The notes under the pieces were generated by a model. It saw only the letters and a program-made list of their open reading frames with translations, made no database searches and had not been told where the DNA came from. This document shows positions 1 through 8,545 of a DNA stretch of 64,000 bases, one piece after another (the stretch's first letter is position 1; the number at the start of each line of letters is the position of its first letter). The position numbers and the translations under genes were made by a program. The DNA is from Bacilli bacterium (GTDB lineage: Bacteria > Bacillota_I > Bacilli_A > RFN20 > CAG-826), in NCBI GenBank assembly GCA_045113315.1, contig JBGUIX010000014.1:3642-67641 (forward strand), in the 5' to 3' direction.

Positions 1-886
1 TCATGAATGTTCCACCAAAAGTAATGCATAGAGGAATGGTCCTTTTTGCATCTCTTCCTGCAAGCAATCTAACAATATGAGGAATGACTAACCCAATCCA
101 AGAAATGGTTCCGCAGAAACATACGGATATGGCGGTCAATACTGTCGCAAGAACAATAATCAATCCGCGATAGAAATTGTAGTTGATACCCTTTGTTTGA
201 GCTTCAGCCTTTCCTTGATTAACGAGATTAATTGGATGAGAGATGAGTAATAAGACAACAACACATACAATCACCACTCCCATGAGGATGTAGTCGCGTT
301 TCATATCTGCGCTTTCAAATGAACCCATAAGCCAGTATGTAATGCTCGCCAATGTGGTTATGTCGCTTGAGAAGTATTTAATCATTGATAAGATAGCGGA
401 CATGAATCCACCAACAATGATTCCAGATAATAGCAATATGGTTGATGATCCGTTTCTAAATAGCTTGGATACCATCACTGTAACAAAGACAGTTAATAAA
501 CCCATCAAGAATGCAAATACACTAATCAAAGCAGATGATAATCCTAGAACTATTGCTAGAGCAGCACCAACAGAGGCACCAGTACTAACACCAAGCAAGT
601 CAGGAGACACCAGTTTGTTCCTGAATGTCTCTTGATATAACAAGCCTGATAAAGATAGTCCGATACCAACAAATGCTGCCATTATGGTTCTAGGAAATCT
701 TAGATTCACTATGATGCTTCTTTGAGTATCTAAAGCGCTATCACTAGTGAAGATAGCTTTAAAGAAATCGTCAATTGCGATTTTATATCTTCCTAGCATT
801 AATGCTAAAGCGAAGACAACAACGAAAACCGCTATCGATATTCCGAATGATATCCAAGTCCTTCTTTTTAAGACTTTCTCATTCAT
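1..886 (-). CDS. FecCD-family ABC transporter permease (iron-siderophore/B12 type), 3' end truncated by window edge
   Basis: Not in ORF track because it has no stop inside the window. My own minus-strand translation from ATG at 886..884 gives MNEKVLKRRTWISFGISIAVFVV... with many TM helices and FecCD-like motifs. The ATG overlaps the stop of the upstream binding-protein gene (TAATG). Confidence 0.7.
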   Translation of the reverse strand, partial: MNEKVLKRRTWISFGISIAVFVVVFALALMLGRYKIAIDDFFKAIFTSDSALDTQRSIIVNLRFPRTIMAAFVGIGLSLSGLLYQETFRNKLVSPDLLGVSTGASVGAALAIVLGLSSALISVFAFLMGLLTVFVTVMVSKLFRNGSSTILLLSGIIVGGFMSAILSMIKYFSSDITTLASITYWLMGSFESADMKRDYILMGVVIVCVVVLLLISHPINLVNQGKAEAQTKGINYNFYRGLIIVLATVLTAISVCFCGTISWIGLVIPHIVRLLAGRDAKRTIPLCITFGGTFM

Positions 887-1950
887 TAGTATAACGAGCC
901 ACCTTCTGGATTAAGTCCATTGAGCATATAAGAAACTTGATCATCAGTTACGTCAGTTCCAAAATACTCTTTAACGGTTGTTTTAACCATGCTTGAAATA
1001 TCATATGAGAAATACTCAGGGTAAATCTTATTAGCTTGGTCATAGAAGAATATTGGAGTCATAGCGGATAATTGTTCAAAAGCAGTAAATCCGATTGGGA
1101 TGTTATAGACTTTATTGTTTTTGACCGCATCTAAATTAACATAGGGTTCTTCTGTTTTGAGAGCATTGATGTTTTTGTTTTGATATTGACCACCACATAC
1201 AAAGATATCTGGGTTTTGAGATACGATTTCTTCTTTGGAAGGTTGATTTGTTGTTAAGGACGCGCCGATAAAATCAAATCCTAAAGATCTATATGCGTAT
1301 TCAGTGAAAGATCCTTGGGTGTCAGTATAACCAACACCTTTATCTTTATCTCCACGGACATAAAATACTTTCTTTTTGGTTATATCGTGCTTAGCTAGCT
1401 CAGTAGTTACTTCACTAATTGCGGTTGTGACTTTGTTTTCCCAAGCTGCTGCTTTTGCTTTGATATCATCGCCGTCCCAAATCTTAGTGACTAATTGAGA
1501 TAAGAACGTAACATAATTATCAAATGTTGGATTTCCATATAAGGAAACACATAAAGCAGGCACACCGTGTGCGTTTAAATCATCAGCAATGTACTTTTCG
1601 GGAGCGAATACTAAATCCACCCCTCTTGATAAGAAGAGCTCACTGCTATTCTGATACTCATATACATAATGATTTTTACTTTCTGGGTAAATAAGAGGTA
1701 CCCAATCATTATTTAATGTGCCCTTATAAGCTCCATCAATTTTATCTCCAAGACCATATGCTACTAATAAGTCATATGTTGTTCTTGAGACACAAGCTAC
1801 CTTTTTAGGGTTTTTGTTGATGGTTATGGTTGTGCCGACCATATCGGTTACAGATATTTGTTCTTGTTTTTCACCTTTATTAGAGCAACCTGTAATAGCT
1901 CCAATTGAGGCAAGTGCTACTAAGAGTGGCACGAATGTCTTTTTATACAT
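886..1950 (-). CDS. ABC transporter substrate-binding lipoprotein (iron-siderophore/cobalamin binding family)
   Basis: 354 aa; lipoprotein signal with lipobox (LVALASIGAITGC); periplasmic binding protein class III-like sequence; translationally coupled to the FecCD permease downstream. Confidence 0.75.
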   Translation of the reverse strand: MYKKTFVPLLVALASIGAITGCSNKGEKQEQISVTDMVGTTITINKNPKKVACVSRTTYDLLVAYGLGDKIDGAYKGTLNNDWVPLIYPESKNHYVYEYQNSSELFLSRGVDLVFAPEKYIADDLNAHGVPALCVSLYGNPTFDNYVTFLSQLVTKIWDGDDIKAKAAAWENKVTTAISEVTTELAKHDITKKKVFYVRGDKDKGVGYTDTQGSFTEYAYRSLGFDFIGASLTTNQPSKEEIVSQNPDIFVCGGQYQNKNINALKTEEPYVNLDAVKNNKVYNIPIGFTAFEQLSAMTPIFFYDQANKIYPEYFSYDISSMVKTTVKEYFGTDVTDDQVSYMLNGLNPEGGSLY

Positions 1951-1968
1951 AAAAGAGTCCCTTTCTGG

Positions 1969-2068
1969 CGATTAATAATTCAATAACCTTATGGCCGGTA
2001 GATACGGTACCGAGACAAATAACGTATCTAGTCGTTTCAATTAATTATTAATCTACCGATATTATATC
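1969..2068 (-). promoter_or_regulatory. Promoter (extended -10 TGaTATAAT at 2060..2068, minus) plus two 15-nt GATTAATAATT(A/C)AAT operator-like palindromes (2038..2052 and 1969..1983)
   Basis: Minus strand reads ttgatgTGaTATAATatcggtaGATTAATAATTAATTgaaac. The 7-1-7 palindrome GATTAAT-A-ATTAATT sits at about +1..+15. A second copy lies ~55 bp downstream in inverted orientation, and both are in the 5' UTR of the iron ABC operon. Confidence 0.4.
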
Positions 2069-2209
2069 ACATCAATTGATGTATCTCGTTAAGTAATAAG
2101 GCTTGGCACCCACCCTAACGCCGCTATTAGGATGGAATGCCGGGGTGTAAAAGAAAGGAGGTGTAAATTTTCAGAAAGGAGGAACGAATATACAACGCGG
2201 CTCTAGTAG

Positions 2210-2386
2210 TTAATCTTTTCTAGGAAGACAAGCTACGATGATTAATCCAATAAGGCCTAAGAATAAGCCTCCGAAGAACCATCCCACTACGCTTCTGTTT
2301 TTATATCCAGCGATAATTGGACAAGCGATCATGCTGATGACTGTGTTAATAATTCCTAATACTGTGATTACTGGTGAAATTTCCAT
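2210..2386 (-). CDS. GlsB/YeaQ/YmgE-family small membrane protein (transglycosylase-associated protein family)
   Basis: G-rich TM motif GWFFGGLFLGLIGLIIVACL. Probable start is the internal ATG at 2386..2384, giving 58 aa; this ATG overlaps the HicB-like stop (TAATG). Confidence 0.5.
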   Translation of the reverse strand: MEISPVITVLGIINTVISMIACPIIAGYKNRSVVGWFFGGLFLGLIGLIIVACLPRKD

Positions 2387-2754
2387 TAGCAATAAGCTCC
2401 TTCTTGCATTAAGTGAATGCATAAATATCCGTTATCATCTTCTTCTAGGATGTATCTAGAACCACCAAATGCATCTTTAACTTCGTATTCAGGGTTTTCT
2501 TCAAGATATTCATCGATCAATTTGGATGATTGTTTTGTGGCATTATCGATTGACTCTAATTTGTAATCCCCAATGCCTATCACTGTTTTTTCAATCAATG
2601 GGAGATGAACCACACATTCATATATCCCTTTCTTGTTTAATGTTGGTTCAAGGACTGATTGGCCATCTTCATCGGCTTGAGCAATCCAATTCAATGTTTT
2701 AATGACTTCTTTTGCTTCAATTTGTTTCATTTTGTTTTCTGCTTTCTGCCTCAT
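2386..2754 (-). CDS. HicB-like / UPF0150 family protein (RNase-H-like fold antitoxin-type domain), no HicA partner seen
   Basis: Start moved to the internal ATG (MRQKAENKMKQIEAK...). The sequence AQADEDGQSV...Y.C.VHLPLIEK...ESIDNATKQSSKLIDEYLEE fits the HicB N-terminal pattern (xEDGxY...PxLP....ExxxNAxxxxxExLE). The C-terminus carries a second EEDDNGYLC repeat. Confidence 0.45.
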   Translation of the reverse strand: MRQKAENKMKQIEAKEVIKTLNWIAQADEDGQSVLEPTLNKKGIYECVVHLPLIEKTVIGIGDYKLESIDNATKQSSKLIDEYLEENPEYEVKDAFGGSRYILEEDDNGYLCIHLMQEGAYC

Positions 2755-2774
2755 GGCTCCTATATAGTAAATTG

Positions 2775-2816
2775 AAAAAAATCGACAAAATGAAAATGTC
2801 CCAAAAAACGGGACAT
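2775..2816 (-). terminator. Rho-independent terminator of the HTH/ATPase cassette
   Basis: Hairpin atgtccc-aaaaaac-gggacat at 2796..2816, followed on the minus strand by a U-rich run (plus strand 2771..2795 is A-rich). Confidence 0.5.
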
Positions 2817-2842
2817 ATAAAAAGTGGCAACCGCCACCGATG

Positions 2843-3064
2843 TTACTCGATAACGATTGCCTTAATTCCGAGTTTCTTGCATAAGTAGACAAGGATATCC
2901 ATGTCAACAAATTTGTTGTGCTCGTTGATTATGCGACTAAATGCCTTACGGCTGATGCCGATTTCTTCAGCAAGCTTGGAAACGGATAGCCTATTATCTT
3001 TAATAAGCTCTCGGATTTCTTCCATAACATTAGTGGAAGAGCATGTGCCAGTATTGAAGCCCAT
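2843..3064 (-). CDS. XRE-family helix-turn-helix transcriptional regulator (73 aa)
   Basis: Start at ATG 3064, preceded by GGAGGAGG 8 nt upstream. HTH segment LSVSKLAEEIGISRKAFSRIINE. Has its own extended -10 (TGaTATAAT, minus 3133..3125) in the 66-nt gap after the ATPase gene. Confidence 0.7.
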   Translation of the reverse strand: MGFNTGTCSSTNVMEEIRELIKDNRLSVSKLAEEIGISRKAFSRIINEHNKFVDMDILVYLCKKLGIKAIVIE

Positions 3065-3088
3065 ATAGCAGTACCTCCTCCACACGTT

Positions 3089-3133
3089 TATTTCTAAACA
3101 AAGGAAATACCCACTGGCTCACATATTATATCA
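3089..3133 (-). promoter_or_regulatory. Promoter (extended -10) and 6-bp inverted repeat TATTTC-N9-GAAATA in the HTH gene leader
   Basis: Minus strand reads gagTGaTATAATatgtgagccagtgggTATTTCctttgtttaGAAATAaacgtgtGGAGGAGG. The inverted repeat lies between -10 and RBS, a typical autoregulatory operator position. Confidence 0.35.
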
Positions 3134-4300
3134 CTCATCTACTTTTGATTTAATTACAGTTCTTAAAAACTCTATTGATTTAACAACCTCTTCTTCTGTT
3201 GGTGCCACTCCATCTTTTGGATGATGGAAGTAGTTTCTTATATAAACAGGTAATGTGCGATACGTATTAACTTTATATTTAGTAGCTCCAACCCAAACCT
3301 TTCCATATTCTTGCTTTGTGTAAAGCGGATGGGTTCTTACAGTTTTATCTATATCGGATATAGCCTCAACTTCATACAAATCAGCCATTCTGGTTAATAA
3401 TTGGTCATGATAATCCATTGATGGAATATGGAAGACTACATAATCTAACTCAGCAAATGTTGGAGTAGGTAAACGTAGGTCCATTTCATTAATTGCTTCA
3501 GTTTTTATTTCTCCATCCTTTTTGGATAATCTAACAATCAATACATCATCTCTAGCAATTAATGACTCAAGCACTTTTTCAGAGTGTGTAGCCAAGAAGA
3601 TTTGCGGAACATTGCCATCGACATCAGTAAGCATTAGTTTAATAAGATTAACGATTTCTTTTTGCCATCTTGGATGAAGTGATGTTTCTGGCTCATCCAA
3701 AAGAACACAATCGGTGCCAGATGCCATTTTTCTGATATCTTTTATTTTTAATAAAATTTCTTGTTGCCCCGATGAATAGTTGGTGATGTTATAACCGTGA
3801 TCTTTTCCATCAATCTTTTTGGTGACTTCTCCACTACACCATACTTCATCTATGTGGTTTTCTTTAAAGATTTGAGTGATTTCGTCATCACCAAGTTTTT
3901 CTAAAAGTTTAATGCCTTCATTAATACGATTAACTGCATTATTGCTTCTTAAACCAAATGGGTTTGCTCCACCAGTATAGGTGGCACTATTCGTTGGATA
4001 CATGTCTTGGCCATCAATCAGCTTTCTGACTTCTTTCATGGCGTTTCTATGAAGACTTCCTTGTCTAAGATAAAGAGCATCAAATGGCTTAGGAACTATT
4101 GTATAAGGCGTTTGTTTATCAACGATAAAATCAGACTTTTCATAGTTAAAAATCTCATTCAATATAGTTGTTTTGCCACATCCGTTTTCACCAACAAAAG
4201 CCACCACTGCATATGGTTCATTTGTTTTAGGATTGATTAAATCTAATTCAAGGTTCTTTAATATTGGATGATTCTTAATTTTTAAATGAGATAAATACAT
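3131..4300 (-). CDS. AAA_21/AAA_15-type (OLD/AbiEii/ABC-like) ATPase with unassigned ~130-aa C-terminal domain
   Basis: 389 aa. N-terminus MYLSHLKIKNHPILKNLELDL is typical of defence-type SMC/RecF-like ATPases. Walker A GENGCGKTT, signature SSGQQ, Walker B/D-loop VLLDEPETSLHP, H-loop LATHS. RBS AGAGGAG, 11 nt after the upstream gene. Confidence 0.8.
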   Translation of the reverse strand: MYLSHLKIKNHPILKNLELDLINPKTNEPYAVVAFVGENGCGKTTILNEIFNYEKSDFIVDKQTPYTIVPKPFDALYLRQGSLHRNAMKEVRKLIDGQDMYPTNSATYTGGANPFGLRSNNAVNRINEGIKLLEKLGDDEITQIFKENHIDEVWCSGEVTKKIDGKDHGYNITNYSSGQQEILLKIKDIRKMASGTDCVLLDEPETSLHPRWQKEIVNLIKLMLTDVDGNVPQIFLATHSEKVLESLIARDDVLIVRLSKKDGEIKTEAINEMDLRLPTPTFAELDYVVFHIPSMDYHDQLLTRMADLYEVEAISDIDKTVRTHPLYTKQEYGKVWVGATKYKVNTYRTLPVYIRNYFHHPKDGVAPTEEEVVKSIEFLRTVIKSKVDE

Positions 4301-4311
4301 ACACGTCTCCT

Positions 4312-5157
4312 CTATTCATAGAAGAAAGGCATCTTCTTTTTAAATTCTTCTTCTGGCATTAGTTGTTTTGCACCAGGAGGTAATACAAGCACCACTTTTT
4401 CTTTCGTGGTTAAATTGTGTCCTTCAACCCAAATGATTGAATATTGAGCATAAAGATTGAGATTCATAAAGAATGCAAAGATAATCGCACCCAAGAACGC
4501 TGTCTCCATAACTGTTGCTAAGATTTGGTTACTTTTACCCAAGCCGGCCCAAATACAAATGATATTGCATGGTACCGATATAATGGCTAGCCATTTAAAG
4601 ATTCTAAATACTATCTTTTCTTTTCTCGGGAATTTCATTCCTAATTTATCAGTTTCATATTTATAAGATGAATTAGAAGCTAATACATTCACCTCATAAG
4701 TTAATTGGGCTTTGCAGGCATAAACGAGATAGATAATGCCAAATACCATCCATGCATTTTCGAAGAATGTAAATGTGCTGTACATCTTAAAACAGATTGT
4801 TGAGATGATGGATGTGACGAGTCCTACTATTAATAGTATTAATAAAGATATAATAGCTAGCGTTTTCCACTTACTAAATTCTGATCTGGTTCCAAACCAT
4901 CTCCAGCTCTTTTTAGACTGCTTTAAAAATGTTTGAAGAATATCGTTTTGAGTTGGTTTAGGTTGAGTGGCATTGGGAGCAACTGTTTTAGGTTGAGCTG
5001 ATTGCCTTTTTAAATTTTGTATTTCTTTTTCTAATTCAGTAATTCTATCATCTGAATCACTTACTTGGGTTTTAACGCCGGTGATCTCGTTTAAAAGCTC
5101 AGCCTGATTAGCTGAAATATCGTCTAGCATCCCAAATAGATTTCTCTCGTCTGACAT
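4312..5157 (-). CDS. Hypothetical membrane protein: N-terminal cytoplasmic coiled-coil (~95 aa, Pro/Gln linker) plus 4 TM helices
   Basis: 281 aa; heptad-like segment ITELEKEIQNLKRQ; four hydrophobic segments; no recognisable catalytic motif; first gene of the ATPase cassette. Confidence 0.55.
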   Translation of the reverse strand: MSDERNLFGMLDDISANQAELLNEITGVKTQVSDSDDRITELEKEIQNLKRQSAQPKTVAPNATQPKPTQNDILQTFLKQSKKSWRWFGTRSEFSKWKTLAIISLLILLIVGLVTSIISTICFKMYSTFTFFENAWMVFGIIYLVYACKAQLTYEVNVLASNSSYKYETDKLGMKFPRKEKIVFRIFKWLAIISVPCNIICIWAGLGKSNQILATVMETAFLGAIIFAFFMNLNLYAQYSIIWVEGHNLTTKEKVVLVLPPGAKQLMPEEEFKKKMPFFYE

Positions 5158-5253
5158 ATTTACTATTTTATCTTATTAGATATTTCTCTTAAATGATATT
5201 AAAAACACATGTTACCACTAACAACCCTAGATATAGGCTATCAATAGGCATAA

Positions 5254-5280
5254 TTACTTAATACTGTTAGTATTAAGTAA
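5254..5280. promoter_or_regulatory. Perfect 12-bp inverted repeat TTACTTAATACT-GTT-AGTATTAAGTAA upstream of the cassette (candidate operator)
   Basis: Read directly from the sequence; lies between the rlmD 3' end and the cassette start; no U-run follows, so unlikely to be a terminator. Confidence 0.35.
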
Positions 5281-6727: not shown

Positions 6728-8545
6728 ATGAAAAAGACATTTTTAAAATTAATTCCTTTATTAGCTATCCTTTTAGGTGGCTGCACACCAAAAATTGATA
6801 ACAGTCATTATTCTTCTAATAACACTAGCAGTGAAAACACTAGTAGTAATCCTTCTTCTAGTGAGACCCATTCTTCTAGTGAAGAACAAGGTTCGTCATC
6901 TGAGGATCAAGGTTCATCATCCGAGGAACAAGGTTCATCTAGCGAAGAACAACAATCTTCTGAAGAAGGTGGGGATAAAGATCCGATTAATATCGATATC
7001 TGGGCCACGAATGATATACACGGTCAATTTAGAGATAGTAATGAAGATACTACTCATGCTGGTATCGATCATTTATTTACCTATTTAAAAGGTAAAAGAG
7101 AAAATCCAAATACCTTATTATTAGACCAAGGTGATACTTGGCAAGGTAGCATCTATTCTAACTATAACTATGGTAACCTCATCAATGATTGTATGAATTA
7201 TATTCATTATGATGCTAGAACAGTTGGCAATCATGACTTTGACTGGGGTGCAGAAAAATTAGCGGCTAATACCGCAAGAGGATATAACGGCTACACAATG
7301 CCCGTATTATCCGGAAATGTTTATAACTATAATTTTGATACTAAAACTATGGGTACTACTTTCCTATCTGATTTAGGAAGAAAAAGTGTTACATATACGT
7401 TAGATAATGGTTTAAAAGTCGGTATCTTAGGAGGAATTGGTGAAGATCAAATTACTTCTATTTGTACTGAATATGTGAGAGATATCGGTTTTAAAAACCA
7501 TGTGGAATTTATCAAAGAAGAAGCCACTCATTTAAGAAATGATGAAAAATGTGACGTGATTATTGCTTCCATCCACGCTCCTCAAAACTTAATTTATGGT
7601 TATAACTTAGATAACTATGTCGATTTAGTACTTTGTGGCCACAGTCATAACCAAGAAACTTATATTGAAAATGATCGATTGCTATATTCTCAAGGCCTAG
7701 CTTATACCGAATCAGTCGCTCATATTGTTATGACTTATGATCCAAATGTTAAAAAAGTGACTGGTAGTACAGCTAACTTTATCCAAGCTAATGAAATAAT
7801 TAATGAAACACCCACTATCGATCCAACCATCCAAAGTTTAATAACTTCATATGGTCAAGAATGCGATACAGCCGCTAACCAAGTGCTGGCTAATAATGTT
7901 TCAGGTTCATTCTATACATCAAATTTAGCCAATTTAGTGACTAAAGCTATGTATAGCCAATGCGTCAAAGAAGGATATGGAGATATTCTCTGTGCCGTAG
8001 CAAACTCCGCAAGAAGCGAAATTGCTAGCAAATCAACTTGGACATTTAAAGACATCTATAAATCTTTCCCGTTTGATAATGTTGTTTATATCGCAGAAAT
8101 AACTGGTCGCGAATTTAGATATAACATCATAACTGGATATAACTACATTACTCGTAATCCGAATTTAAAAGTTTCTTGTCCATCTTGTGGAGAAGAAATT
8201 GCTTTTAACGAATTAACATCTGGAGAGGTAATTACATGTCCTCACTGTCATGAAGACCAAAAAAAAGATGCTTTAGTATCTCTCGCTAGTCAAATCGATT
8301 TAAATAAAAAATATAAAATCGCTGTTCTTGATTATGTGTATTTACATTGCAATTCAAGTAGATCATATGATAAGTTCACCGAAACAGGCGGTACTTCCAC
8401 AATAAAACTTTCTAAAAACTATCGTGAAATAGCTCGTGATTGGTTAATCGCGGAAGGTTACAACACAGGAAAAGCACTTCGTTATCAAGATTTTGCTGCA
8501 TCACTTTGGCAGCACAATAAAAGTGGTTATACAGTAATAAGCTAA
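6728..8545 (+). CDS. Surface lipoprotein 5'-nucleotidase / 2',3'-cyclic-nucleotide phosphodiesterase family (metallophosphoesterase N-domain + 5'-nucleotidase C-domain)
   Basis: 605 aa. Lipobox LLGGC; metallophosphatase motifs DIWATNDIHGQ, GNHDFD, GHSH; Ser/Glu-rich repetitive linker; C-terminal domain carries a CPSCG...CPHCH zinc-ribbon-like insertion. Confidence 0.8.
   Translation: MKKTFLKLIPLLAILLGGCTPKIDNSHYSSNNTSSENTSSNPSSSETHSSSEEQGSSSEDQGSSSEEQGSSSEEQQSSEEGGDKDPINIDIWATNDIHGQFRDSNEDTTHAGIDHLFTYLKGKRENPNTLLLDQGDTWQGSIYSNYNYGNLINDCMNYIHYDARTVGNHDFDWGAEKLAANTARGYNGYTMPVLSGNVYNYNFDTKTMGTTFLSDLGRKSVTYTLDNGLKVGILGGIGEDQITSICTEYVRDIGFKNHVEFIKEEATHLRNDEKCDVIIASIHAPQNLIYGYNLDNYVDLVLCGHSHNQETYIENDRLLYSQGLAYTESVAHIVMTYDPNVKKVTGSTANFIQANEIINETPTIDPTIQSLITSYGQECDTAANQVLANNVSGSFYTSNLANLVTKAMYSQCVKEGYGDILCAVANSARSEIASKSTWTFKDIYKSFPFDNVVYIAEITGREFRYNIITGYNYITRNPNLKVSCPSCGEEIAFNELTSGEVITCPHCHEDQKKDALVSLASQIDLNKKYKIAVLDYVYLHCNSSRSYDKFTETGGTSTIKLSKNYREIARDWLIAEGYNTGKALRYQDFAASLWQHNKSGYTVIS
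6881..6961 (+). repeat. 21-nt tandem repeat (~4 copies) encoding the GSSSE(E/D)Q linker in the nucleotidase lipoprotein
   Basis: Units gaagaacaaggttcgtcatct / gaggatcaaggttcatcatcc / gaggaacaaggttcatctagc / gaagaacaacaatcttct. Confidence 0.6.

Follow-up and report, generated by a model that had tools for sequence, protein, structure and literature searches.

A variably present OLD/PtuA-type ATPase cassette with a predicted HEPN-like domain and a membrane partner in a defence-gene hotspot of uncultured gut Bacilli

P2 Old, Gabija, PARIS and Septu use a fused or partner nuclease, a Toprim or HNH DNase or tRNase, whereas the ATPase described here has an RNxxxH domain in the C-terminal slot. Kiwa consists of a 4-TM protein, KwaA, and the cytoplasmic KwaB. 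PrrC and RloC combine an N-terminal ABC-type NTPase and a C-terminal helical R..H domain of ~110 aa in a single polypeptide, an architecture that our ATPase (about 390 aa) resembles. The published definition of HEPN domains (PMC3710099) includes a conserved Rx4-6H motif whose arginine is followed by a polar residue (N, D or H); the same work lists HEPN families that are joined to ABC ATPases and frequently sit in restriction-modification operons.

We analyzed a cassette in a 64,000-nucleotide stretch of DNA (the window, by which we mean the whole stretch). The cassette is variably present among uncultured gut Bacilli, where it occupies a defence-gene hotspot. The reading we prefer, at roughly even confidence, is that of a variable abortive-infection anti-phage module, PrrC-like in design, in which an OLD/PtuA-type ABC ATPase carries a HEPN-like RNase and works with a membrane partner. 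The HEPN fold, the RNase activity, the role of the membrane protein and the defence phenotype are the parts of this reading that we infer.

Gene order and DNA signals

All three cassette ORFs are on the minus strand. They encode a 281-aa TM partner protein (4312..5157), a 389-aa ATPase (3131..4300) and a 73-aa XRE/Cro-type HTH protein (2843..3064, from an ATG at 3064; HTH_26 match at 9e-9). An earlier note, made from the sequence, described a compact minus-strand unit of three genes with associated signals, and all of these elements are in place. The 11-nt spacer between the TM and ATPase genes (4301..4311, minus strand) contains, as that note said, a ribosome-binding site, AGGAG within AGGAGACGTGT, which suggests that the two genes are translated from one transcript; the gap is 8–22 nt in relatives. 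A promoter-like TTAAGA-16-TAAAAT for the TM-ATPase transcription unit lies at 5165..5192 (minus strand). The extended -10 proposed for the HTH gene, TGATATAAT, is present at 3133..3125 (minus strand) and shares nucleotides with the ATPase stop codon. Two terminator-like hairpins with T-runs follow immediately on the HTH stop, both on the minus strand: one at 2838..2823 and one at 2816..2796, the latter being the terminator already reported.

The flanking genes encode an RlmD-type methyltransferase (PF05958) and a Peripla_BP_2 binding protein, in agreement with the rlmD and iron-uptake flanks named before. A 121-aa protein encoded at 2386..2751 (minus strand) is a possible fourth cassette member: its presence or absence tracks the cassette. 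It had been labelled HicB-like, but it has zero matches in Pfam, NCBIfam, PADLOC and PHROGs. Since a fourth gene of about 113–150 aa usually accompanies the cassette in relatives, and since the partner slot and the HTH gene vary or are missing there, its description as a self-contained three-gene cassette is not supported. A search for foreign base composition in the cassette found no anomaly.

The perfect 12-bp palindrome reported upstream is also present (5254..5280, minus strand), as an inverted repeat with a 3-nt loop, TTACTTAATACT-AAC-AGTATTAAGTAA. It follows the rlmD stop by 66 nt and precedes the promoter-like site by about 60 nt. When the intergenic region was dinucleotide-shuffled 5000 times, only 4 shuffles produced a perfect arm of 12 bp. 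As RNA, it would form a hairpin of -11.5 kcal/mol (z = -4.0); as a candidate rlmD terminator, this hairpin is stable but is not followed by a U-tract. The repeat is identical in L019 and agrees at 26 of 27 positions in L006 and L007. We rejected it as the operator of the HTH protein: it precedes cassettes whose HTH is only 63% identical (L006, L019), and it is missing or shortened in L003, L013 and L015 despite an HTH that is 90–99% identical. Because the palindrome does not track the HTH allele, an operator role for the HTH protein is not shown.

ATPase and C-terminal domain

Residues 1–275 (3476..4300, minus strand) form an ABC ATPase domain of the OLD/PtuA/AriA type. Pfam assigns AAA_15 at 74.3 bits (cut-off 32.1) and AAA_21 at 64.0 bits (cut-off 27), the PADLOC profiles for PtuA and AriA match at 1e-25 and 2e-24, and the nearest solved structures are retron/Septu PtuA ATPases. 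These matches support the view that the protein is a defence-type ATPase and not a transporter subunit. Invariant across 37 homologues are Walker A (G37-ENGCGKT44, 4169..4192), the Q-loop (R79-Q80), the signature SSGQQ (176–180), the Walker B/D-loop LLDEPE (D202-E203-P-E) and the H-loop ATHS (H239); all but the Q-loop had been pointed out in the earlier note. The NCBIfam PtuA model reaches 42.9 bits against a cut-off of 500, and Pfam AAA_13 (PrrC/RloC family) is not among the ATPase matches at E <= 0.1. With Pfam and PADLOC, we found no HNH or Toprim (DUF4435) nuclease and no GajB helicase, fused or adjacent, in any cassette gene. Public names for the family are generic (‘AAA family ATPase’ or ‘ATP-dependent nuclease’).

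The remaining residues, 276–389 (3131..3475, minus strand), make up a C-terminal domain (CTD) that we predict, from its sequence motif and structure model, to be a HEPN-like RNase domain. The AlphaFold2 model (pLDDT above 90) is helical with one beta-hairpin: helices at 282–290 and 295–308 are followed by a variable insert, a helix at 350–359, a loop and a last helix at 369–388. No Toprim match was found. The candidate HEPN Rx4H active site, R355-N-Y-F-H-H360 (3221..3238, minus strand), is an instance of the family-invariant R-N-x3-H and ends the penultimate helix, ahead of the loop to the last one. Across 63 diverse CTDs, R355 and H360 never vary and N356 is kept in at least 90%, even where overall identity is 23–25%. 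The Rx4H lies within the last 75 residues in 148 of 150 representatives. The motif fits the HEPN definition (PMC3710099), as does the order of secondary structure, with a variable insert between helices 2 and 3, compared as an order and not by 3-D superposition. Neither single-sequence nor profile searches of the CTD (Pfam, PADLOC, NCBIfam, PDB sequences) gave anything significant, HEPN included. HEPN_Apea is the most recurrent of the weak Pfam matches (E = 0.015–0.019, 3 of 63 members), and a weak match to KEN (Ribonuc_2-5A, E = 0.088) falls on the motif.

Far from matching nothing, as first thought, the CTD is a widespread domain. At least 577 protein clusters contain it, and in nearly all cases it forms the C terminus of a Walker-A ATPase of 380–500 aa. 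The earlier note had also seen no nuclease and had named the membrane protein as the only partner. Against this speak the invariant RNxxxH that the CTD of the ATPase itself carries at the HEPN-defining position, and the long-form relatives, which occupy the position of PrrC in restriction-modification operons or stand alone on mobile elements. An effector role for the TM protein is therefore not required.

The ATPase of the window is a short form, without about 75–100 residues of ATPase inserts present in the long forms, and its cassette has no restriction-modification genes. L058 has the order HsdS-ATPase-HsdR with gaps of 4 and 0 nt, and the long-form ATPase adjoins HsdR in L049 and a type ISP enzyme in L070; embedding among restriction-modification genes is probable also for L066, L067, L074 and L077. 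Solo long forms are found on Weissella, Lactobacillus and Klebsiella plasmids, beside IS elements or recombinases, and a relative in E. coli adjoins an integrase in a prophage-like element. The ATPase half of the long forms matches the P2 Old profile at 1e-40 to 1e-56, with this CTD replacing the Toprim nuclease. A phage-borne origin was considered and rejected: IMG/VR viral contigs yielded only one distant relative, on a contig that looks like an integrative mobilisable element, and the phage database one weak match.

Between helices 2 and 3, the CTD contains a hypervariable insert (residues about 299–349; 3254..3406, minus strand). Four discrete types of about 50 residues exist, and the window carries type T1. 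Identity in the N-domain is unrelated to identity in the insert (Spearman = -0.003), and the insert type differs for 24 of 37 nearest ATPase-domain neighbours. The window and P0028, for example, are 94% identical in the N-domain and 15% in the insert. Judged from such sequence comparisons, insert types are shuffled independently of the ATPase domain and show no correlation with its phylogeny. The insert was also considered as an interface to the partner; we rejected this, as all four types occur alongside TM family A and two of them alongside family B.

Partner slot, regulator and hotspot

For the TM protein, AlphaFold2 predicts four TM helices (91–123, 128–148, 182–206 and 211–237) and a small cytoplasmic beta-sheet formed from residues 82–87, 153–180 and 239–259; the N-terminal coiled-coil region is modelled with low confidence. 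The N-terminus has a conserved LFxxLDDI motif and a variable coiled-coil/Pro-Gln linker (residues 1–70), and the polar residues E133, N198 and E218 are invariant inside the TM helices. Profile searches (Pfam, PADLOC, NCBIfam, PHROGs) and fold comparison matched the protein to no known family, transporter included, which upholds its placement outside transporter families.

This 4-TM partner always adjoins the ATPase and is never seen without it. In other loci, the partner slot holds a second, unrelated 4-TM family (L006, L035) or a soluble protein (L010, L037), and L038 has no partner. We also considered a 1161-aa SIR2 protein, 64 nt upstream in L036, as another partner but rejected it: this is Dsr1, a defence gene that stands alone, and so more likely a neighbour. 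The HTH protein is likewise 73 aa in relatives. Its gene occurs in most ATPase-bearing loci (missing in L001, L036 and L116/L117) and is absent where the ATPase is absent. From its sequence and distribution, it is probably a transcriptional regulator of the cassette.

The cassette is absent in 4 of 10 informative reference genomes (L011, L014, L016, L018), in which the flanking binding protein is 84–94% identical. Its neighbours or replacements include DarT/Macro, TIR, NERD, SRA-McrA, Dsr1, an OLD-Toprim nuclease and IetA. The insertion hotspot suspected in the earlier note is thus borne out, and we found neither a fixed context in all relatives nor an assignment of the ATPase or the TM protein to a transporter. 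In nearly all loci, the cassette is directly upstream of an iron-type Peripla_BP_2/FecCD/ABC_tran operon, an exception being L115, which has the cassette without the iron operon. Because the same operon is beside it in nearly every relative, its distribution could largely reflect vertical inheritance. In L006, the binding protein is 100% identical to that of the window and the ATPase only 68%. The ATPase stop codon coincides exactly with a sharp recombination breakpoint, from which the two loci share 95.8% identity over a block that runs from the HTH gene to the Fe-ABC operon, though the rlmD genes are only 66% identical; this implies recent horizontal exchange. On the left, the variable segment has its edge at about 5201, where homology to L006 stops. 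The locus is also an example of gut Bacilli, uncultured and with reduced genomes, in which one hotspot is retained while defence systems come and go in it.

Possible mechanisms and comparison with known systems

In the reading we prefer, the ATPase would dimerise on ATP and keep the C-terminal RNase silent until a phage cue lifts this control. The R355/N356/H360 site would then cut cellular RNA, perhaps tRNA, and halt translation before phage replication completes. Specificity, whether for the trigger or the RNA target, may come from the swappable insert of 50 residues that immediately precedes the catalytic helix. With its conserved N-terminal motif and its cytoplasmic beta-domain, the co-translated 4-TM protein could bind the ATPase. 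We would guess that it acts as an anchor at the membrane, a sensor or a silencing partner and need not itself be what kills, in a role like that of EcoprrI for PrrC or of KwaA in Kiwa. The 73-aa HTH protein would set expression. Possible too, though we hold it only tentatively, is a membrane-coupled ABC-HEPN module in which the 4-helix protein reports an envelope event (a perturbed membrane or the injection of a phage genome, for example) to a PrrC-type RNase in the cytoplasm; the swappable insert would retarget sensing or cutting, and the coiled coil of the partner would replace the inserts lost from the short-form ATPase.

The earlier note proposed that the ATPase is a sensor and switch whose variable CTD recognises phage, and that the 4-TM coiled-coil protein is an effector that depolarises or permeabilises the membrane. 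We think this unlikely, though several observations agree with it: the tight coupling of the TM gene to the ATPase gene (11-nt gap, never without the ATPase), invariant polar residues in the TM helices that are compatible with a channel, a second unrelated 4-TM family in the same slot, an insert shuffled like a recognition module, and a predicted HEPN fold with no significant profile or PDB match. However, the same R-N-x3-H CTD is found in hundreds of ATPases without a TM partner, and a pure sensor domain is not expected to keep a catalytic-looking triad at about 23% identity. Soluble proteins or none at all in the slot of some loci, and a TM fold that resembles no known pore or effector, point the same way.

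We give a still lower probability to a conflict or addiction system, either a toxin-antitoxin-like stabiliser of the island or an inter-element weapon, with the HTH protein, the 121-aa protein or both as antidote or regulator. The HTH protein weakly resembles HigA/PezA-type antitoxins, AAA_21 is the ‘AbiEii toxin’ family of Pfam, relatives are found on plasmids and integrative elements, and the HTH-to-Fe-ABC block was recently exchanged. But the loci of many relatives lie among recognised anti-phage genes, the HTH is dispensable in several loci, and the solo long forms have no conserved small antitoxin beside them. Very improbable, and already largely refuted, is a housekeeping or accessory ABC transport or regulatory pair serving the adjacent iron-siderophore-type importer. 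The position upstream of the iron operon would suit such a pair, as would an ABC_tran match (5.7e-6) and the IMG name of the ATPase, ‘ABC-type multidrug transport system ATPase subunit’. Yet OLD/PtuA/AriA models score far better than transporter models, the iron operon encodes its own ATPase, and the TM protein, with only four helices, falls in no transporter family. The cassette-free genomes keep the iron operon, L115 has the cassette without it, and soluble proteins replace the partner in some loci.

Among described systems, the preferred reading is closest to PrrC. Like prrC, the genes of long-form relatives are flanked by hsdS and hsdR in type I operons, and in both cases a partner protein may hold the nuclease silent. 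The differences are that the ATPase of the window is of the AAA_15/AAA_21 (OLD/PtuA) type, with no match to AAA_13, the family of PrrC and RloC, and that its partner is a 4-TM protein with an HTH protein and not a restriction enzyme. The likeness of the CTD to the PrrC nuclease domain is one of architecture and motif. By profile and structure, the ATPase is of the same ABC class as P2 Old, GajA, AriA and Septu/retron PtuA, and mobile elements and defence islands are the habitat that it shares with the OLD family. Kiwa offers an analogy in its small four-helix membrane protein, encoded directly upstream of, and apparently co-transcribed with, a cytoplasmic defence protein; PADLOC gave no KwaA or KwaB match for the TM protein or the ATPase. 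The HEPN families ERFG_01251 and APECO1_4465, ‘fused to ABC-ATPase’ (Anantharaman et al., 2013), are similar, as compared by description only, in architecture, in restriction-modification and prophage contexts and in Rx4-6H. The E. coli homologue next to a prophage integrase parallels their prophage context, and if the CTD belongs to one of these families, it has already been catalogued computationally.

If the preferred reading is true, a family of at least 577 clusters, ranging over prophage-like elements of Enterobacteriaceae, plasmids of lactic acid bacteria and restriction-modification operons, would form a branch of the PrrC design, that of a HEPN RNase under the control of an ATPase, with the ATPase being of the OLD type. 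The four insert types, being interchangeable, would be a natural swap set for specificity in HEPN effectors. To the PrrC design, the subfamily in the window would add a membrane partner, and the triggering of a suicide RNase by envelope events would become testable.

Gene layout and ATPase class

The three minus-strand ORFs described in the earlier note are present as claimed: a 281-aa transmembrane (TM) protein (4312..5157), a 389-aa ATPase (3131..4300) and a 73-aa HTH protein (2843..3064, counted from the ATG at 3064; the length is the same in relatives). An 11-nt spacer containing AGGAG separates the first two. A promoter-like site lies at 5192..5165, an extended -10 (TGATATAAT, 3133..3125) overlaps the stop codon of the ATPase, and two terminator-like hairpins lie 3' of the HTH stop codon. 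The perfect 12-bp palindrome at 5254..5280 is unlikely to have a chance origin (reached in 4 of 5000 shuffles) and folds as RNA at -11.5 kcal/mol (z = -4). Genes for an RlmD-type methyltransferase and a Peripla_BP_2 binding protein flank the cassette. The 281-aa protein and the ATPase are real genes; exact matches of both are found on up to 11 public contigs, and their homologues number 491 and 133; all of these belong to gut and rumen genomes of uncultured 'Mollicutes/Bacilli/Erysipelotrichaceae/Enteromonas'.

The ATPase comfortably exceeds the Pfam cut-offs for AAA_15 and AAA_21, with a marginal match to ABC_tran. Its top PADLOC models are PtuA (1e-25) and AriA (2e-24); in NCBIfam, no model came near its own cut-off. 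All catalytic motifs are invariant across 37 homologues (54–98% identity). The structures nearest to an AlphaFold2 model (mean pLDDT 88) are the retron Ec83, Eco7 and I-A PtuA ATPases, Septu PtuA, the Eco8 OLD nuclease and AriA, with generic ABC and SMC heads scoring slightly below these. The earlier note was correct in assigning a defence-type ATPase.

The C-terminal domain and its wider family

The C-terminal domain (CTD) had been said to match nothing, which is not borne out. Searching 1.84 billion representatives with a profile of residues 276–389 alone found at least 577 clusters at E <= 1e-3, nearly all with the CTD at the C-terminus of a 380–500-aa protein beginning with a Walker A motif. 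Curated families and public names give this family generic labels only. Its consensus reads TLPTYIRNxIxHP; Rx4H occurs within the last 75 residues in 148 of 150 representatives. R355 and H360 are kept, and N356 is present in at least 90%, in members only 23–25% identical overall; such distant members include proteins from plasmids of Weissella, Lactobacillus helveticus and Klebsiella, from an IMG/VR contig and from an E. coli chromosome.

HEPN domains are recognized by an Rx4-6H motif in which the residue following R is 'mostly N, D or H' and by a variable insert separating helices 2 and 3; some HEPN families are 'fused to ABC-ATPase', frequently within restriction-modification operons (PMC3710099). 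In the CTD model (pLDDT > 90), helices at 282–290 and 295–308 are followed by an insert (309–349), a helix (350–359) ending in RNYFH, a loop and a helix at 369–388. In this predicted structure, both the motif and its placement agree with the HEPN description, and so does where the insert lies. HEPN_Apea was the most recurrent family in profile comparisons, matching weakly (E = 0.015–0.019) and in only 3 of 63 CTDs, and a weak KEN domain match (E = 0.088) falls on the CTD motif. PDB profile searches with the CTD found nothing, and whole-protein fold searches aligned the ATPase head alone. For these reasons we treat an HEPN-like RNase as a reading of the CTD rather than a finding: it is the most likely one, held with moderate confidence, and the fold is not demonstrated. 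Read as HEPN, the CTD insert is the helix-2/helix-3 insert and immediately precedes the putative catalytic helix.

Among long-form ATPases of 460–485 aa, the one at locus L058 comes after HsdS, with a 4-nt gap, and before HsdR, with a gap of 0 nt (flanking genes confirmed as Methylase_S and HSDR_N/SWI2_SNF2/T1RH-like_C). Others abut HsdR (L049) or a type ISP enzyme (L070), and four more loci (L066, L067, L074 and L077) show the same size-and-spacing pattern. In EcoprrI, prrC is placed as the long-form ATPases are in restriction-modification operons. Solo members of the CTD family occur on plasmids, beside IS elements or recombinases, and one sits after a large serine recombinase and a relaxase-like gene. 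A long-form E. coli member of 482 aa (TFIRNHIHHPEN; L118 4998..6446, strain SCU-316, NZ_CP054371.1), annotated as 'ATP-dependent nuclease', directly follows an integrase and precedes a major capsid gene, lying between rcnR and phage genes. It has a DNA-level match in 10 of 5426 complete E. coli genomes and would be a convenient experimental model. In these relatives, the ATPase half hits the P2 Old profile (1e-40 to 1e-56) over the ATPase part only; P2 Old has a Toprim nuclease, whereas the relatives carry the CTD in its place.

A variable locus with mosaic evolution

All relatives found via the ATPase or the TM protein share the order partner, ATPase, usually the 73-aa HTH gene, a gene of about 113–150 aa, a small two-TM protein and Peripla_BP_2/FecCD/ABC_tran, the exception being L115, which is without the iron operon. 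The upstream side is variable and rich in defence genes: across relatives we saw DarT with Macro, TIR-LRR, NERD with STAND, SRA-McrA/NUDIX with a DUF2726 helicase, HNH, NERD and TIR, and Dsr1. Within the window, a 605-aa lipoprotein (6728..8545, plus strand) has a Ser/Glu-rich low-complexity linker with repeated SSSEEQG after its lipobox, and four cysteines arranged as two CxxC pairs (CPSCGEE...CPHC), an insertion late in the protein.

We surveyed presence and absence by searching reference genomes with the binding protein as anchor. The cassette was found at five loci (L012, L013, L015, L019 and L020), and L017 has a divergent ATPase and no homologue of the TM protein. Four loci (L011, L014, L016 and L018) are without the cassette despite binding proteins 84–94% identical; the empty site holds an OLD-Toprim-type nuclease at L016 and an IetA-like ATPase with a DEDDh exonuclease at L011. 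The small two-TM gene stays with the iron operon even without the cassette (L014 and L018) and therefore belongs to the flank; in the window it encodes 70 aa (2210..2422, minus strand) and shares its first 37 nt with the end of the 121-aa gene. L018 (CAZDYJ010000027.1) is labelled an uncultured Gammaproteobacteria MAG, yet its iron operon is of the same Bacilli type and encodes a binding protein sharing 86% identity with that of the window; the public record probably contains a binning error. For two loci with the same ATPase (P0043), the HTH gene is called in L005 alone and not in L004; tblastn finds it intact in both at 90% identity, so this is likely a gene-calling difference, not a loss.

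Comparison with one relative, L006, gives 100% identity for the binding protein but only 68% for the ATPase. Starting at the ATPase stop codon (position 3133), DNA identity is 95.8% (window 1..3133 versus L006 10211..13347, spanning the HTH, 121-aa and 70-aa genes and running into the iron-type ABC operon), versus 74% in the ATPase domain and 66% in rlmD, with no match in the TM gene. Such a block in genomes with rlmD only 66% identical implies recent horizontal exchange of the stretch from the HTH gene to the iron operon. About 2 kb beyond this operon, L006 and L007 have a large serine recombinase and a D5_N primase.

ATPase residues ~299–349 fall into four discrete insert types. Mean pairwise identity is 63% in the ATPase domain, 65% in the CTD core and 31% in the insert. 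Insert identity does not correlate with ATPase-domain identity (Spearman -0.003), and for 24 of 37 proteins the nearest ATPase-domain neighbour carries a different type. One homologue (P0028) has 94% identity in the ATPase domain and 15% in the insert, another (P0077) 57% and 78%. A role for the insert as the partner contact surface is ruled out because the window's TM family pairs with all four types and an unrelated TM family with two. More likely, the insert contacts an external factor, which would be a trigger or an RNA target. Insert type T3 was seen only with a strongly divergent HTH allele, HTH3 (3 of 3 loci: L012, L017 and L037), which may reflect functional pairing or linkage, the latter possible since the two are ~66 nt apart. 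Weak paralogues of the 121-aa protein (35–38% identity; L012 13072..13260 and L017 14500..14823) lie downstream of the iron operon at loci whose cassette has HTH3, which suggests that members of this protein family occur more than once per island.

Membrane partner and relation to known systems

Searches of Pfam, NCBIfam, PADLOC and PHROGs gave the 281-aa protein no match other than coiled-coil noise. Its structure model, confident from residue 70 on, has four TM helices and a small sheet from residues 82–87, 153–180 and 239–259, segments that would all be cytoplasmic by the positive-inside rule. An N-terminal motif is conserved (F8, D12 and I14 nearly invariant), as are three polar residues located in the membrane, E133, N198 and E218. 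The protein is directly upstream of the ATPase wherever it is found. At other loci the partner slot holds an unrelated 238-aa four-TM protein that retains an N-terminal ERLDDIE motif (L006, L007 and L035), a 322-aa soluble protein (L010), a 526-aa protein with an 8-nt overlap with the ATPase start (L037) or no partner (L038). The main rival reading, proposed in the earlier note, makes the membrane protein the effector. We consider the ATPase's own tail, rather than the membrane protein, the likely killing activity; possible roles for the membrane protein are anchor, sensor, silencing partner and second effector.

Taken together, these observations support a role for the cassette in conflict or defence and speak against one in transport or housekeeping. 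Both ABC-HEPN fusions and defence systems in which an ABC ATPase has swappable partners have been described before (PMC3710099; bioRxiv 10.1101/2024.01.29.577857), and the most notable features here are the membrane coupling and the four-way shuffling of the insert. The resulting design would resemble that of PrrC/RloC, with an OLD-type ATPase as its base and, in this clade, a membrane partner and a small HTH regulator coupled to it.
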